A DNA stretch of 64,000 bases from Escherichia phage p000v. The stretch lies in the sequence record NC_055781.1; one strand, given 5' to 3'. Both the position numbers and the translations under genes were made by a program. Every line of letters begins with the position of its first letter. Positions within the stretch are counted from its first letter, which is position 1. Under the pieces are notes generated by a model, which ran no database searches, was not told where the DNA came from, and saw only the letters and a list, made by a program, of their open reading frames with translations. Of this stretch, positions 23,961 through 61,572 are shown piece by piece.

Positions 23961-25543
23961 TATTTTACCTTAATGATATAGTTTAAAGAAATATTCCATG
24001 GGCGAGTTTCATTTCCAATTAATTCTGGACGATTCATGGTATATCTAGAGTTACGTTGAGACGCTGGATCAATTTCATATCCATCGTTAGTAAAATATGA
24101 ACGGTTATCCCAGTCAAGTCCTTTACGAGTACCAACAAAGTTTGAACGACGAGTATTACCAAATGCACCGGAATCATCATGTTCGCCAAAACCACCAGCA
24201 TGCTTATGATATGACATCTGTTGTTTTTGCACTTCACCGACATATCCACCAGTACAACCTACCGCCAGACGAGGCTTACCAAATTGGTCATTACCATTAA
24301 CATTAGGGTTAGTTAAATGGTTACCACGACCTGAGCCGCGAACAAATAATCCACGCATATCAGGCAAGCCTGGGTTAGAAGAACTACCACCATATCGTGT
24401 CCCAATTCTGGAAGCATATACCGGACATTCTGAAGCAGAAACGGTCCCGCCGTGACAGAAGCGCCAGTCCGAACTCGGTAAACTATCTGCTGCCCACATT
24501 GTAATAGCACCGACTGGAAGAATTCGGTCTAATTCATTTTGAGTCACAATACGATTGCCTTGAATATAACCACCGGTCATATTGACATTACCAGTTATAT
24601 TAGCACCACCAGAACCAACCGTCAACGTATTATTAATGCGAAGCGTGCCATTAATAGTTTGTCCGCCTCGTTGGTGGATAACATCAGCATTCCAAGCAAG
24701 GGCAGAAGAACCATCACCACCTGATTGACTACCTGCTTGTGTAGTTAAACGAACAACTCCACGTAAAGAAGTTGTAGCGCCGCGACCATTTAATGTTGCG
24801 CCGGTCACTACAACTGAAGAGTTGTTACTATTTACTTCAGTCTGTGTCCCTAGTTTAACGACGCCTTTATTAGTTTCTGATGCTACTGAATTCATAAAGG
24901 TATAAGGTGAAATTGCATAGCCTTCACGCAGGGTGCCTTGTTGTGCTTGTGCAACTGTAGCTAAACGAACAACACCGGTAATAGATTCGGTGGCGTCACT
25001 ATTATTTGGAGCAATTTGTGAAATAAGTTTAATTGCTAATTGTTGCGTTTTTAACGGAGTCATTGCCGTTGTATCGTCAGAACCAGCTAATGCCGCAGCA
25101 GAAGTTGAAATTTTAATTACACCATTTGTTGCTTCTGTTGACACTTTTGTCTGAAATACATTGTCTATTTTTTGATTCAATTTAAGCGGAGTAATTGATG
25201 CATCGTCAATTACTCCGGCTACTGCTTCATCTTCAGTAGCATAACGAGTTAAACCATATTGAGTTTCTGTCGCATTAGGATATTGTAGTCGAGCATTAAG
25301 TGTGGCTGGAGTAACAGCTTTACTATTATCTAATCCATCAATAACTTCTTGAGGAGTAGCTATTTGAATAATTCCTGGTGTAGTAGTTGTTGCTTCTGGT
25401 ACACCATTAACACCTGAAGGAGAAATAGCAGCTAATGCGGCTTGGACATTAGTGACTGTATCTGGAAAATTCGACCCAGTAGGGTCGAATTCAACGTAAA
25501 CGGATTCGTTTGAAACGTGTTGGTATGTATTGTTATTACTCAT
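23960..25543 (-). CDS. 12: Short tail fiber protein gp12
   Basis: 527 aa, T4 gp12 length; N-terminus [14 protein letters not shown]... Confidence 0.95.
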
Positions 25544-51355: not shown

Positions 51356-51661
51356 ATGAAATTAGGCGAAACCAACCGAATTGGTCTTTTAACAATATTT
51401 GCATCACCTTTTTACGCAGCTCTTTCTGTTGCAGTATTACAAAAGGCTTACGATATGGATGGTGTTCCTGGTTGTATATTCTTATCACCATTTTTGTTAT
51501 TCGTTGGAGCACTGCTATTATACGCCACGACTAGTTTCGACCATAATGTCTGGGTTAATTATAAATGTAAATTGTCTGAAGAAGAACACGCAGAAGCTCG
51601 TAAAAAAGCTATTGAATCTACCAATCTAGAAAATTTCATTAAAGAATGTCGAGGAAAATAA
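51356..51661 (+). CDS. Membrane protein with C-terminal ENFIKECR tail
   Basis: 101 aa; two hydrophobic segments (IGLLTIFASPFYAALSVAVL, CIFLSPFLLFVGALLLYA); C-terminus ...NLENFIKECRGK. Confidence 0.55.
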   Translation: MKLGETNRIGLLTIFASPFYAALSVAVLQKAYDMDGVPGCIFLSPFLLFVGALLLYATTSFDHNVWVNYKCKLSEEEHAEARKKAIESTNLENFIKECRGK

Positions 51662-51662
51662 T

Positions 51663-52349
51663 ATGAATAGTTCTAAAGTGTTTAATAGTCAAGCTCGTGC
51701 AGTAGGTGGTTTCGCTGGCCGTATCAGTAATGATAAAATTAAAAATGAGCCTATGTTCTTCAACTGCGACCTGAAGTTTGCTTTTGATAACGGCGGTCCT
51801 ATCACTCGTTCTTTCATCATGAATCTGCCTGATGACTGGAACACTAATGAAGTAGTATTCGATTCACGTGTTCATATGCTTATGCCTGGCTGGTATCCTG
51901 CTATTCCTGGATACCACCATGACGATGTTCCTCGCCCTGATATTCCAGTCGGCCAACACTTTATTACTGCAGGACAACCTGACTATGATAACCCTCGTTA
52001 CCATTCTGAACATATTCTTGGTCTTGTTAACGCTGACGTGTGTCCTACTCATTTTGCAACAGGAACTGCAGAGTTCAGTCAGATTCCTGATGGCGAACTT
52101 ATCTATCGCCAGTGGCACAAAGAAGTCCTCGAAAAAATCGAAAAAGGCGAACTAGAGAAATGGGAAGCTCCAGACCGTACTCTTCTTCAGTTTGATTGGC
52201 AAACATGGCACACTGGTTCTCGTGCAATTAGTAATGGATGGCGTTGGTTCGGGCGTGTATCTCGTAATACAGACCGAGTTAAAAAGATTACCAATGAAAT
52301 TCGTGTCAACGCTCAAGTTTATCTAGAATTCCCTATGGAAGGCTGGTAA
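51663..52349 (+). CDS. Hypothetical protein
   Basis: 228 aa ORF tightly packed after 51356; His/Asp-rich segment (YHHDDVPRPD...HSEH). Confidence 0.5.
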   Translation: MNSSKVFNSQARAVGGFAGRISNDKIKNEPMFFNCDLKFAFDNGGPITRSFIMNLPDDWNTNEVVFDSRVHMLMPGWYPAIPGYHHDDVPRPDIPVGQHFITAGQPDYDNPRYHSEHILGLVNADVCPTHFATGTAEFSQIPDGELIYRQWHKEVLEKIEKGELEKWEAPDRTLLQFDWQTWHTGSRAISNGWRWFGRVSRNTDRVKKITNEIRVNAQVYLEFPMEGW

Positions 52350-52840
52350 TGATTAACAAAACATATTGGTCTAATATTGACGACGGCAATGAAGGTATTT
52401 CGTACTATTCAGTGGATTGGACAGGATGTCCATCCTACTTAGTGAAACGTATTTGCCAAGAATTTAAAATCGACCAGCCAGCAGGTATTATCGTGAACAG
52501 ATACATTAATGGATATCAACCTATCGATGAAGTAATACGAACAACTCAAGCTGATCTTGAAAAGTTTTTCAATAAGTGCCAATGGATAACAGGATGGATT
52601 ATATTTGTACCGTCGGTATGGTTTTTTAGTACTAAGGTGAGTTCTTTCGGTTTTGTTGATATTATTGCTATCTTATTAGCATCTACTATCGTAAGTATAA
52701 TTGGTGGTATAATTGGTGGAGGTACTATAGGCATCATTATTAATCTTGTTAAAAGTAGTTTACAGGAACGTAAAGACAAGATAAAGGCCAAGAATAACGA
52801 AGTTGAACGTTTTATTACCGAATGCAGGAATTTGAGATGA
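52349..52840 (+). CDS. Membrane protein with C-terminal ERFITECR tail
   Basis: 163 aa; soluble N-domain, two TM segments (WIIFVPSVWFF, FVDIIAILLASTIVSIIGGIIGGGTIGIIINLV), C-terminus ...NNEVERFITECRNLR. Confidence 0.55.
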   Translation: MINKTYWSNIDDGNEGISYYSVDWTGCPSYLVKRICQEFKIDQPAGIIVNRYINGYQPIDEVIRTTQADLEKFFNKCQWITGWIIFVPSVWFFSTKVSSFGFVDIIAILLASTIVSIIGGIIGGGTIGIIINLVKSSLQERKDKIKAKNNEVERFITECRNLR

Positions 52841-53521: not shown

Positions 53522-53555
53522 GTAATAAATACCTCCTATAAACGTGGGAGGTATT

Positions 53556-54044
53556 ATGAATATATTTGAAATGCTTCGTAATGACGAAGGTCTTAGACTG
53601 ACTTTATACAAAGACACCGAAGGCTTTTGGACGATTGGCATAGGCCATTTGGTAACAAAGAACCCGTCTTTAGCCGTAGCTAAAGCTGAACTTGACAGAA
53701 TGATCGGTCGTAAATGCAACGGCACAATTACCCTTGATGAGGCTGAAAAGCTATTTAATGAAGACGTTGATAAAGCCGTTCGTGGAATCTTGGGTAATGC
53801 TAAACTTAAACCAGTGTATGATTCTTTAGACGCGGTTCGTCGATGTGCATTAGTCAATATGGTCTTCCAAATGGGTGTAGCAGGCGTCGCAGGTTTTACT
53901 AATTCTCTTCGTATGCTTCAACAGAAACGTTGGGATGAAGCGGCAGTAAATCTAGCCCAATCTAAATGGTATCGTCAGACACCTAATCGCGCGAAACGCG
54001 TAATCTCAACATTTAAAACAGGAACTTGGAAAGCGTATATATGA
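53556..54044 (+). CDS. e: Endolysin, T4 lysozyme (gene e)
   Basis: Start at M5 of the track ORF (SD GGGAGG); 162 aa; [32 protein letters not shown]... essentially T4 lysozyme with catalytic Glu11/Asp20/Thr26 context. Confidence 0.95.
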
Positions 54045-58192: not shown

Positions 58193-58651
58193 ATGACTAT
58201 CAATTCGGAAGTTTTTATCCGTCGCAATAAACTCCGTCGAATCTTTGAAACGGAGTTTCGTCAAATCAACGCCAGTATAAAAGATGCTGCAAAGTCTCTT
58301 GGACTACCAGGCTTTCATATAAAGTATTCTCAACATCTCTTAGATCGTGCCATCCAGAGAGAAATAGATGAGAATTACGTTTTTGAATTATTTCATAAAG
58401 TAAAAAATCATGTTAAAGAAGTTGCAGAATTTTTATCAATGCCGGCACGTCCAGATGTTGATGAAGATTTTGTCGAAGGTGTCGAATATCGCCCAGGCCG
58501 TTTAGAAATAACTGACGGAAATCTTTGGTTAGGACTTACAGTCTGTCGCGAAAATCCAGCATTCAAAATGAAGACTCTTCAATGCAGAATGGCTATTATT
58601 AACAGTAAACGACTACCAGGAAAAGCTTCTAAAGCAGTGATTAAAATCTAG
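58193..58651 (+). CDS. regB: RegB-like endoribonuclease
   Basis: 152 aa (T4 RegB 153 aa); MTINSEVFIRRNKLRR... matches my recollection of the RegB N-terminus; location between denV and tk. Confidence 0.55.
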   Translation: MTINSEVFIRRNKLRRIFETEFRQINASIKDAAKSLGLPGFHIKYSQHLLDRAIQREIDENYVFELFHKVKNHVKEVAEFLSMPARPDVDEDFVEGVEYRPGRLEITDGNLWLGLTVCRENPAFKMKTLQCRMAIINSKRLPGKASKAVIKI

Positions 58652-58659
58652 AGGTAAAC

Positions 58660-59202
58660 ATGAGAAAAGCACTACTCGCTGGTCTATTTGCTCTTTCGTT
58701 ATCAGCACATAGCTCCGAGCATACTTTTAGTAATGTCCAACTCGATAACTTGAATTATGCTTATCAGTTTGGGGAACAGTTTTCTAAGGATGGAAAATTT
58801 AAAACGCATGAAAATATGCATAAGAAAGGACTTGGATACATAATGGCCGCAATACTATGGCAGGAATCATCTGCCGGTATTAATCTTAAAGATAAGAAAG
58901 GTCACCATGCGTATGGAATGTTCCAAAACTATCTACCAACAATGAGGGCAAGAATTAACCAGCTCGGTTATAATATGACTGATGCCCAAATTAAGAAAAT
59001 GCTATCTAAGCGGTCTAATTCAGCAAGATGGGCTTATATCGAATTTTCTTATTGGTTAAATATACATAACGGGGATATAAGAAAAGCTATATCCTCATAT
59101 AATGCGGGATGGAAGACAAGTGCTGGAAGTAAATATGCTTCTGAAGTCCTAGAAAAGGCTAATTACCTTAAATCAAATAAACTACTGGAAATAAAAGAAT
59201 GA
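58660..59202 (+). CDS. Secreted lytic transglycosylase (SLT-domain protein with signal peptide)
   Basis: 180 aa; signal peptide MRKALLAGLFALSLSAHS; SLT motifs ILWQESSAG (catalytic Glu-Ser), GMFQ, SYNAGW. Confidence 0.7.
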   Translation: MRKALLAGLFALSLSAHSSEHTFSNVQLDNLNYAYQFGEQFSKDGKFKTHENMHKKGLGYIMAAILWQESSAGINLKDKKGHHAYGMFQNYLPTMRARINQLGYNMTDAQIKKMLSKRSNSARWAYIEFSYWLNIHNGDIRKAISSYNAGWKTSAGSKYASEVLEKANYLKSNKLLEIKE

Positions 59203-59546
59203 CCAAAATGTTGGCTTTAATAGTTGGCTTGGTTTCATTTAACGCTCTTGCTAATACTACATATACTGATGTAACGGAGTATACAAACAGAACGGCGTCT
59301 GATTATTGTGGTAAAAGTCAAGAGTGTAAAGTAGATTTTTCACAAAAATTGTTATATGCATATAAAGACGGAGAAAAAGATGGGGCGTCTAGTAGGTTCA
59401 AGGCGTCTACCTTAATTAAAAGATACTATAAAAAATGGCAAATATTAGAATGCTCGGTGGCGGAACCTAAAGATAAGGCAGCATGCAATTCTATGGTGGA
59501 CCGTCTAGTTGACTCTTATACTAGAGGACTTGCAGCAAGTGATTAA
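59199..59546 (+). CDS. Secreted Cys-rich protein (115 aa) with signal peptide
   Basis: Signal peptide MTKMLALIVGLVSFNALA; six Cys in the mature part; 115 aa corresponds by position and size to T4 vs, but the signal peptide makes that identity uncertain. Confidence 0.5.
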   Translation: MTKMLALIVGLVSFNALANTTYTDVTEYTNRTASDYCGKSQECKVDFSQKLLYAYKDGEKDGASSRFKASTLIKRYYKKWQILECSVAEPKDKAACNSMVDRLVDSYTRGLAASD

Positions 59547-60006
59547 AAACTATATCAAGGGCGATATTGTCGCCCTGTTTTCTGAAGGTAAAAATGTTGC
59601 TCATGGTTGTAACTGTTTCCATACAATGGGCGCAGGAGTAGCCGGGCAATTAGCGAAGGCCTTTCCAAAGATTTTAGAAGCCGATAAACTTCAAACCGAA
59701 TTCGGAGACGAGTCTAAACTTGGGTCTTATTCGGTTTATGAAAAATATTTTAAGACCCATAAAGCTTATTGCTTTAATCTTTATACACAGTTTGAGCCGG
59801 GACCTAATTTTGAGTACTCTGCTTTAATGAATTGTATAATAGAATTAAATGAATTCGGAAAAAATAAGATAACAAAGCCTGTAATTTATATGCCAAGAAT
59901 TGGTGTAGGTATAGGTGGTGGAAACTGGGATATCATTGAAGAAATTCTTGATACATATTCCACTAAACTAGAAATTGTGATTGTTGATTGGGAACCATTG
60001 CTATGA
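59539..60006 (+). CDS. Macro-domain-like protein (putative ADP-ribose binding / hydrolase)
   Basis: Track ORF starts with TTG at 59509 and has no ATG; GTG 59539 with SD GAGGA 10 nt upstream proposed. Motifs GDIVALFSEGKNVAHGCNC...GAGVAG and IGVGIGGGNWD resemble macro domain glycine-rich loops. Confidence 0.45.
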   Translation: MIKNYIKGDIVALFSEGKNVAHGCNCFHTMGAGVAGQLAKAFPKILEADKLQTEFGDESKLGSYSVYEKYFKTHKAYCFNLYTQFEPGPNFEYSALMNCIIELNEFGKNKITKPVIYMPRIGVGIGGGNWDIIEEILDTYSTKLEIVIVDWEPLL

Positions 60007-60435: not shown

Positions 60436-61017
60436 ATGGCTAGTTTAATTTTTACCTATGCCGCTATGAACGCTGGTAAGTCTGCTTCATTACTTACTGC
60501 CGCACATAACTATAAAGAACGTGGCATGGGTGTATTAGTTCTTAAACCGGCTATTGATACTCGCGATTCAAAAGGTGAAATAGTCTCTCGTATCGGTATT
60601 CGTCAGGATGCCAATATAATTACAAAAGACATGGATATCTTTGAATTTTATAAATGGGCAGCAGCACAAAAGGATATTCATTGTGTATTTGTTGACGAAG
60701 CTCAGTTCTTAACTACTGAAAAGGTGTATCAACTTAGTCGTATTGTTGACGTATACAATGTGCCAGTAATGGCATATGGACTACGAACAGATTTTAAAGG
60801 TAATCTATTTGAAGGTTCTCAAGCATTAATGGCTATTGCCGATAAGCTTGTTGAACTTAAAGGTGTCTGTCATTGCGGTAAAAAAGCCACAATGGTAGCT
60901 AGAGTCACGGAAGACGGACTTCCAATTACAGATGGCAGTCAAATTGAAATTGGTGATACCGATAGATACGTGTCATTATGCCGGAAGCATTGGAATGATT
61001 TGACAGGGTTGTTATAA
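60436..61017 (+). CDS. tk: Thymidine kinase
   Basis: 193 aa (T4 Tk 193 aa); P-loop MNAGKS, VDEAQF, zinc-binding CHCG...C...C motif. Confidence 0.93.
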   Translation: MASLIFTYAAMNAGKSASLLTAAHNYKERGMGVLVLKPAIDTRDSKGEIVSRIGIRQDANIITKDMDIFEFYKWAAAQKDIHCVFVDEAQFLTTEKVYQLSRIVDVYNVPVMAYGLRTDFKGNLFEGSQALMAIADKLVELKGVCHCGKKATMVARVTEDGLPITDGSQIEIGDTDRYVSLCRKHWNDLTGLL

Positions 61018-61269: not shown

Positions 61270-61572
61270 ATGGCCTTAAGAGCGATAGCTGTCATGGCGA
61301 TGCTGGGTTTTTTTGCAGCAACAACTCCTATCGTTGGTACTGCACGTATTGACCCATATTTTGATAACTTTATGGAATCAGGGATTAAAAACGTATATAC
61401 TTTGTTCGAAATTCAAAATGTTGAGAATTCTGAAAAATTCTATAAGTATATGGCAAAGCATTACAAAAATAGCCCCTGTGATGATGCATTTGAATGTCAT
61501 GAACAAGGCATAAAAACTGCCAGACAATTTGCTGAGTTCATGAAAATAAAATTAGAGCCTACATCTATCTAA
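61270..61572 (+). CDS. rI: RI-like lysis inhibition regulator (antiholin), membrane-anchored/periplasmic
   Basis: 100 aa; N-terminal signal-anchor MALRAIAVMAMLGFFAAT; resembles T4 RI (97 aa) in size, N-terminus and position next to tk. Confidence 0.6.
   Translation: MALRAIAVMAMLGFFAATTPIVGTARIDPYFDNFMESGIKNVYTLFEIQNVENSEKFYKYMAKHYKNSPCDDAFECHEQGIKTARQFAEFMKIKLEPTSI

Follow-up and report, generated by a model that had tools for sequence, protein, structure and literature searches.

The gene vs of bacteriophage T4 is among the oldest named T4 functions, and its product has been known for sixty years as the 'valyl-tRNA synthetase modifier'. The orthologue of this gene in Escherichia phage p000v (NC_055781.1), of which a stretch of 64,000 nucleotides, hereafter the window, was analysed, raises the question of whether the protein acts in the cytoplasm at all. 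The name is at odds with the features of the Vs protein, since the named function requires a cytoplasmic location. In the window, vs directly follows vs.1, the stop codon of vs.1 and the start codon of vs share the sequence ATGA (58660-59202 / 59199-59546), and both genes encode proteins with predicted signal peptides. Based on sequence features and structural models, we lean towards the reading that Vs.1 is a periplasmic enzyme and Vs its disulfide-stapled periplasmic partner. As genes, vs.1 and vs are ordinary, being orthologues of T4 genes in a well-sampled phage genus and members of known families. What deserves attention is the contradiction between the predicted topology of Vs and its name, together with the deep conservation of an apparently exported pair of Vs.1 and Vs-like proteins. 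The two genes are:

58660-59202, + strand: vs.1 orthologue, 180-aa precursor, predicted periplasmic GH23/SLT-like peptidoglycan-cleaving enzyme (phrog_600, 3.7e-67)
59199-59546, + strand: vs orthologue, 115-aa precursor, small four-helix protein with four invariant Cys (phrog_1256, 5e-35)

Vs.1 shares 83% identity with its T4 orthologue (NP_049725; 'hypothetical 20.7 kDa protein in the vs-regB intergenic region') and resembles it in length class, N-terminus (MRKALLAGLLAISMMAHS then SE), motifs, and position after regB, with no material difference. T4 Vs (NP_049724; PHROG 1256; PF26829), with the N-terminus MTKILVLCIGLISFSASASA then DT, is 67% identical to Vs of the window; it also has 115 aa, the same four cysteines, the invariant C-terminal sequence SMVDRLVDSYxRGL, and the same place between vs.1 and tk.4. 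The function for which it is named is cytoplasmic, whereas sequences throughout the family point to export. The original prediction, made from the sequence alone, had described two adjacent ORFs (open reading frames) on one strand and placed them in the T4 vs.1/vs slots, whose functions it called poorly defined. Both the ORFs and the exact positions were described correctly, but the vs slot is not undefined, as it holds the orthologue of the T4 'valyl-tRNA synthetase modifier' gene.

Predicted export of Vs.1 and Vs

The N-terminal segments in question are:

58660-58713, + strand: predicted Sec signal peptide of Vs.1, MRKALLAGLFALSLSAHS then SEHTF (crude rule; low predicted local distance difference test score, pLDDT, at the N-terminus)
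59199-59252, + strand: predicted Sec signal peptide of Vs, MTKMLALIVGLVSFNALA then NTTYT (crude rule; N-terminus unstructured in the model)

The signal-peptide call is based on a crude, home-made rule, on conservation, and on the unstructured N-terminus in AlphaFold models. The rule demands a net positive charge, then an uncharged core of high hydropathy, and then small residues at positions -3/-1, all within the first 15-30 residues. The N-terminus of Vs.1 has the layout MRK-ALLAGLFALSLSA-HS then SE, with a predicted cleavage between AHS and SE, and that of Vs has the layout MTK-MLALIVGLVSFNALA then NT, with a predicted cleavage between ALA and NT, in both cases after residue 18. Both begin with a positive n-region, continue with an uncharged hydrophobic core (13-15 residues), and end in small residues at -3/-1. 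The rule was passed by 38 of 42 Vs.1 homologues and by 36 of 38 Vs homologues; the failures were truncated or mis-started gene calls, or sites of the F-A-K type. Residues 1-18 are the least conserved segment in both families, as is expected of signal peptides. AlphaFold places the N-termini of both proteins outside their folds: the pLDDT of Vs.1 is about 64 at residues 1-20 and >90 in the core, while residues 1-15 of Vs have pLDDT <50 and no secondary structure, and its residues 1-19 are unstructured. Two signal peptides had also been claimed in the original prediction, which agrees with both the rule and its conservation among the homologues.

A lipobox for signal peptidase II was not found in either protein; Vs.1 lacks cysteine, and the first Cys of Vs is residue 37. 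N-termini of the signal-arrest-release (SAR) or membrane-anchor type were judged less likely, given the short cores (about 13-15 residues) and the presence of AXA-type sites. From these sequence and model features, export of Vs itself appears probable. When T4 Vs with an N-terminal His tag was expressed in the cytoplasm, it formed inclusion bodies (PMC8076793). This insolubility is weak evidence, but it fits an exported, disulfide-dependent protein.

Of the 134 ATG-initiated ORFs in the window that encode 60 aa or more, only 4 passed a stricter version of the rule, among them Vs.1 and Vs. The third (51356-51661, + strand) encodes a conserved 101-aa protein (phrog_9798) and lies beside the gene for a predicted membrane protein (52349-52840; phrog_2203). 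The fourth (24034-24243, - strand) is probably a spurious antisense ORF.

Vs.1 as a divergent GH23/SLT-type protein

The key position of Vs.1 is:

58864-58866, + strand: codon of Glu69, the predicted catalytic acid of the WQES motif (invariant in 42 homologues)

Vs.1 has no cysteine and carries the motifs WQE69SS, G86MFQN, and Y147NAG, that is, the E-S, GMFQ, and YNAG signatures from which the original prediction had read an SLT enzyme. E69, S71, G86, Q89, N90, Y147, N148, and G150 are invariant among the 42 homologues, and A149 is conserved in at least 90% of them. The same holds for F23, Q27, N30, A34, and G38, which are invariant in a family-specific N-terminal helix. The Pfam SLT domain (PF01464) was matched by 39 of the 42 homologues at E <= 0.01 (best 1.3e-7), and many homologues carry a precomputed PF01464 match. 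Members of the family are found in 2051 phage records, among them those of Acinetobacter, Aeromonas, Vibrio, Felixounavirus, and Kuttervirus-type phages. In a weak profile alignment with the catalytic domain of Escherichia coli Slt70, E69 falls on the catalytic Glu of that enzyme (RQES motif), and GMFQ coincides with GLMQ.

The alignment-based AlphaFold model of Vs.1 (pLDDT 89.8; predicted template modelling score, pTM, 0.83) has a lysozyme-like, all-helical fold. Its best Foldseek match in the PDB was the Ralstonia GH23 chitinase 3w6e; MltD (8rhi), Slt (5o2n/6fcq/1sly), phi6 P5, and T7 gp16 were matched as well. Nearly all top matches at E <1 were GH23 or lysozyme-like proteins, with probabilities of 0.8-1.0, many of them near 1.0.

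The SLT matches of the homologues, the invariant motifs, the confident model, the GH23 matches in Foldseek, and the alignment with Slt70 are the reasons why we accept Vs.1 as a predicted, divergent GH23/SLT-type enzyme. Transglycosylase, muramidase, and chitinase chemistry are not separable by sequence for this protein. A marginal SLT similarity of vs.1 was published as early as 2006 (PMC1524935). The earlier description of the locus was mostly right, and its SLT reading is both supported and already known.

Vs.1 shares with the GH23 family 1 enzymes (Slt70, Slt/MltD of Pseudomonas aeruginosa, phi6 P5, T7 gp16) the lysozyme-like helical fold, the periplasmic site of action predicted here, the E-S motif at a helix end with its single Glu, predicted to be catalytic in Vs.1, and the GLMQ-like and AYNxG-like motifs. 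It differs from them in being very divergent, with a sub-threshold Pfam score, no sequence match in the PDB, and an N-terminal helix of its own. It also differs in being a free-standing early phage protein and not a component of the virion or of a lysis cassette.

The labels given to Vs.1 homologues in phage records drift considerably and include 'RegB', 'endoribonuclease', 'site-specific RNA endonuclease', and 'C-type lysozyme/alpha-lactalbumin family'.

Family, cysteines, and fold of Vs

Vs contains four cysteines (C37, C43, C85, and C96) and not six, as had been counted in the original prediction. They form two pairs:

59307-59327, + strand: codons of Cys37 and Cys43, CX5C spanning the turn between helices 1 and 2 (both invariant in 38 homologues)
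59451-59486, + strand: codons of Cys85 and Cys96, CX10C spanning the turn between helices 3 and 4 (both invariant in 38 homologues)

The match to phrog_1256 extends over residues 1-112, and PF26829 is carried by the Vs homologues. All four Cys and the C-terminal motif are invariant in the 38 homologues. The close family is narrow: an exhaustive HMMER search with the single sequence found 7 clusters among 1.84 billion representatives, limited to enterobacterial T-even-like phages. The low number of clusters implies that single-sequence searching misses remote Vs-like proteins.

The AlphaFold model (pLDDT 86.9 overall, >93 from about residue 21) contains helices at residues 20-37, 41-64, 69-85, and 90-114. 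Cys37 and Cys43 flank the first hairpin turn of this model, and Cys85 and Cys96 flank the second. The Cys-Cys spacing varies among relatives (CX5-10C and CX8-15C). Such variable loop lengths are expected of disulfide-closed loops and fit these better than metal knuckles. A structure search with the Vs model gave no informative relatives, a sequence search against the PDB gave no meaningful match, and NCBIfam and PADLOC returned nothing for either Vs.1 or Vs.

Homologues of Vs are frequently labelled 'valyl-tRNA synthetase' instead of modifier of this enzyme.

Cytoplasmic or periplasmic Vs

Nothing that can be read from the Vs sequence explains or supports the label of a valyl-tRNA synthetase (ValRS) modifier. 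Neither a signal peptide of Vs nor a structure of Vs with ValRS was discussed in any paper found by full-text literature searches. Vs may be exported, with the link to ValRS arising from cell breakage or from another ORF; it may be retained in the cytoplasm; or it may occur in both places. The conserved signal peptide, the four Cys with variable loops, and the N-terminus outside the fold are predicted features that do not agree with a cytoplasmic location.

A Vs that is at least partly cytoplasmic would bind or change the host ValRS as its name says. The N-terminus would then be a membrane or binding helix, the cysteines would be structural or bind a metal such as zinc, and Vs.1 would be unrelated. 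This possibility appears rather unlikely, but the T4 orthologue has the ValRS function both in the literature and in annotation, and T-even early genes are tightly packed whatever their function. The loops between helices 1 and 2 and between helices 3 and 4 share one end of the up-down bundle in the model, so that all four Cys could reach one metal site. Their spacings of 5-10 and 8-15 residues are, however, unlike those of metal knuckles. All three regions (n, h, and c) and an AXA-type site are seen in 36 of 38 homologues and in the remote homologues described below, the hydrophobic core, at about 15 residues, is shorter than expected of a membrane anchor, and the model leaves the N-terminus unpacked from the fold. 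A form without signal peptide would also need an internal start codon, but the only Met residues are those at positions 1, 4, and 99.

The features indicating export could also mean that the vs ORF was mis-assigned. In this case, Vs would be purely periplasmic, and the true ValRS modifier of about 10 kDa would be the product of another small early gene nearby, for example of the vs.3/vs.4 type. Genetic mapping of vs reportedly dates from the 1970s, ahead of sequencing, with the factor sized at about 10 kDa. Both T4 and the window have several other ORFs of about 70-100 aa in the 1.5 kb preceding vs. The predicted mature Vs, with 11.0 kDa in the window and T4 alike, would itself agree with a factor size of about 10 kDa, and we regard mis-assignment as improbable.

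Conservation of the Vs.1-Vs pair

The order regB-vs.1-vs-tk.4 was found in 27 of 27 IMG/VR loci and in all annotated T-even-like loci with Vs, and the order regB-vs.1 was preserved at all related loci examined. A Vs-like protein with a signal peptide and four Cys follows vs.1 in each of the 27 IMG/VR loci. The distance from the vs.1 stop to the vs start ranges from -8 to +3 nt over the IMG/VR and annotated T-even-like loci. Gene position led to remote Vs-like proteins (109-119 aa, all carrying a signal peptide and four Cys), which were then confirmed with hhalign (E values from 2e-6 to 8e-6):

RB49, locus L006, 2997-3356: Vs-like protein encoded directly after vs.1 (hhalign 89%, E 2e-6)
Acinetobacter phage MD-2021a, locus L035, 1959-2288: Vs-like protein encoded directly after vs.1 (hhalign 86%)
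Citrobacter phage Miller (Pseudotevenvirus), locus L036, 2410-2739: Vs-like protein encoded one gene further downstream of vs.1 (hhalign 84%)

The proteins of the Acinetobacter phage and RB49 also match each other in BLASTP (1e-11). Only the Miller protein is called Vs in the records examined; the other two of the three are not. These neighbours in distant Straboviridae were missed by single-sequence HMMER, and the Vs family is therefore much wider than the databases show.

The two proteins could both be exported and yet act independently. Vs.1 would then remodel or recycle peptidoglycan, and Vs would have another periplasmic target, such as a protein of the host envelope, a defence system, or the machinery of lysis inhibition or superinfection. 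Vs.1 is present and Vs absent in Aeromonas phages and Felixounavirus, a terminator and another gene part the two genes in phage Miller, and Vs evolves faster than Vs.1 (41-71% versus 62-84% identity across the same loci). A Vs-like gene nevertheless follows vs.1 directly across very distant Straboviridae, including Acinetobacter phages. Independence of the two exported proteins is conceivable, although we consider it doubtful.

Downstream of vs.1 in Aeromonas phage Riv-10 come a 75-aa ORF and, after it, a lipoprotein-like ORF. The latter (locus L005, 3299-3739; 146 aa; ...IGMYGC...), located between vs.1 and tk.4, was tried as a candidate Vs and rejected, being unrelated to Vs. The Acinetobacter phage encodes a further protein of 141 aa with the signal peptide MKLKAALLSLLLVSPFAAA between the same two genes (locus L035, 2285-2710). 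The slot between vs.1 and tk.4 seems to gather envelope-targeted proteins.

Published T4 transposon data

Both vs.1 and vs of T4 are non-essential in LB (HIDEN-SEQ preprint, 10.1101/2025.11.20.689424). Insertion reads in vs.1 and vs (26.6 and 22.6) were about 10-fold below those in regB (179), tk.4 (290), and vs.3 (652) (10.1101/2025.11.20.689424). The strongest depletion in M9 glucose was that of vs, with a log2 fold change (log2FC) of -2.19 and an adjusted p reported as 0.00000 (p < 1e-5), while vs.1 had a log2FC of -0.87 with p 0.0055 and adjusted p 0.155; rI, rIII, and sp displayed no M9-dependent effect parallel to that of vs (10.1101/2025.11.20.689424). A clean T4 vs knockout confirmed the M9 effect, plaquing poorly only on M9 glucose. 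This 2025 genome-wide study called the biological role of Vs unknown, yet found vs to be the most needed gene on minimal medium.

These data bear on each of the alternatives. A cytoplasmic Vs is favoured by the poor growth of the knockout on M9 glucose only, where amino-acid supply limits translation. The same phenotype argues against mis-assignment, since the knockout was specific for this ORF and its minimal-medium effect is compatible with a role in tRNA charging. Independent action of the two exported proteins agrees with the vs phenotype being stronger than that of vs.1. The similar under-representation of insertions in vs.1 and vs speaks against it, as does the lack of a medium-dependent effect for rI, rIII, and sp. 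For the possible roles in lysis inhibition or superinfection exclusion that the original prediction had named, the data reveal no link to rI, sp, or rIII in M9 glucose, the one condition in which vs matters.

Insertions in regB were enriched in M9 glucose versus LB (log2FC +1.17, p 0.049, not significant after correction; table S8). This increase, together with the decrease in the adjoining downstream genes vs.1 and vs, hints that RegB processing may affect the expression of the pair.

Proposed role of the pair

In the reading that we favour, vs.1 and vs would be transcribed together with regB and translated via their overlapping stop and start codons. Both proteins would be made as precursors with Sec-type signal peptides and would reach the periplasm during infection. 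Mature Vs.1 (about 162 aa, 18.7 kDa, isoelectric point 9.6), with its predicted lysozyme-like GH23/SLT fold, would use the single Glu69 of the E-S motif to cleave the bond between N-acetylmuramic acid and N-acetylglucosamine (MurNAc-GlcNAc) in peptidoglycan, most likely as a lytic transglycosylase, with GMFQ and YNAG lining the groove. Mature Vs (about 97 aa, 11.0 kDa) would contain the disulfides Cys37-Cys43 and Cys85-Cys96, each closing one helical hairpin, and would most plausibly serve Vs.1, or the remodelling of the cell wall that Vs.1 causes, as a partner or modulator.

A more specific proposal is made only tentatively. It holds that Vs is Sec-exported and doubly disulfide-bonded in vivo, that it belongs with Vs.1 to an ancient module of the Straboviridae (including Acinetobacter phages) in which it acts on the cell wall, for instance by restraining or directing Vs.1, and that the link to ValRS reflects post-lysis mixing or another gene product.

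Several observations weigh against a periplasmic pair of enzyme and partner. The classical description of T4 Vs has it bind and alter the cytoplasmic ValRS, and the need for vs on minimal medium fits a role in translation or valine supply at least as well as one in the envelope. The decrease of vs.1 in M9 glucose is not significant after correction and could be due to polarity on vs. The signal-peptide call comes from a crude rule together with conservation and the models. With regard to Vs.1, the window protein scores 18.8 bits against Pfam SLT, for which the cutoff is 21.3; PDB sequence searches with Vs.1 alone and with a profile of its family gave no SLT and no meaningful match; and its Foldseek matches have E values of 1e-2 to 0.5 and template modelling (TM) scores of about 0.5. 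Homologues of Vs.1 also occur without a Vs-like neighbour in Aeromonas phage Riv-10 and in FelixO1, where the gene lies between rIIB and pnk. The overlap of vs.1 and vs is no evidence of functional coupling, since vs likewise overlaps the functionally unrelated tk.4.

Small periplasmic proteins that act on enzymes of the lysozyme fold offer a comparison. T4 Spackle (Sp) is a small periplasmic early protein that bears a signal peptide and inhibits the tail lysozyme gp5. It may serve as a working analogy for an action of Vs on Vs.1. We found no relation between Vs and Sp in sequence or fold, and Sp had no minimal-medium effect in the T4 transposon data, unlike Vs. The inhibitors Ivy, MliC/PliC, and PliG are likewise small and periplasmic, some are disulfide-bonded, and they bind lysozyme-fold enzymes, but no similarity of the Vs fold to theirs was found.

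A periplasmic Vs would require that the link to ValRS be re-examined, and vs.1-vs would then be a conserved early envelope-remodelling module of T-even-like phages. If Vs is cytoplasmic, the family would be an instructive false positive for reasoning from signal peptides and disulfides.

Genomic context and neighbouring genes

The window belongs to a T-even phage of the RB69-like genus Mosigvirus. The 2 kb around vs.1 and vs share 97-98% identity with phages of this genus, S143_2 and SHSML-52-1 among them, and 60-80% with about 500 Tequatrovirus records. The order annotated in SHSML-52-1 and T4 is denV - internal proteins - vs.8...vs.3 - regB - vs.1 - vs - tk.4 - tk.3 - tk.2/1 - tk - rI.-1 - rI. 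The neighbours in the window are:

53544-54044: endolysin e
58193-58651, + strand: regB endoribonuclease gene, upstream neighbour (Pfam REGB_T4, 1.6e-69)
59539-60006, + strand: tk.4/adfM macrodomain gene, downstream neighbour (Pfam Macro, 7.4e-6; SHSML-52-1 annotation)
60436-61017: tk
61270-61572: rI

Vs.1 is encoded separately from endolysin e, and an rI-like gene is located nearby, both as originally proposed. The gene tk.4 begins at a GTG codon and overlaps the 3' end of vs. In T4, it has recently been named AdfM, an anti-DarTG2 counter-defence factor, while the label 'phosphatase' persists for tk.4 orthologues (59539-60006, + strand, in the window) in many phage records.

Directly past the vs stop codon, within the first codons of tk.4/adfM, lies a G+C-rich hairpin (59558-59576, + strand), AGGGCGAT-ATT-GTCGCCCT then GTTTTCT. 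Its predicted RNA fold has an energy of -13 kcal/mol (z = -3.3), which was equalled by 0 of 200 shuffles. The 20-nt core is 100% identical among the window, T4, and Gaprivervirus VR26, while the flanks diverge; synonymous sites are therefore conserved. The hairpin could be a terminator or attenuator, or a 3'-end stabiliser that ends the regB-vs.1-vs transcript.

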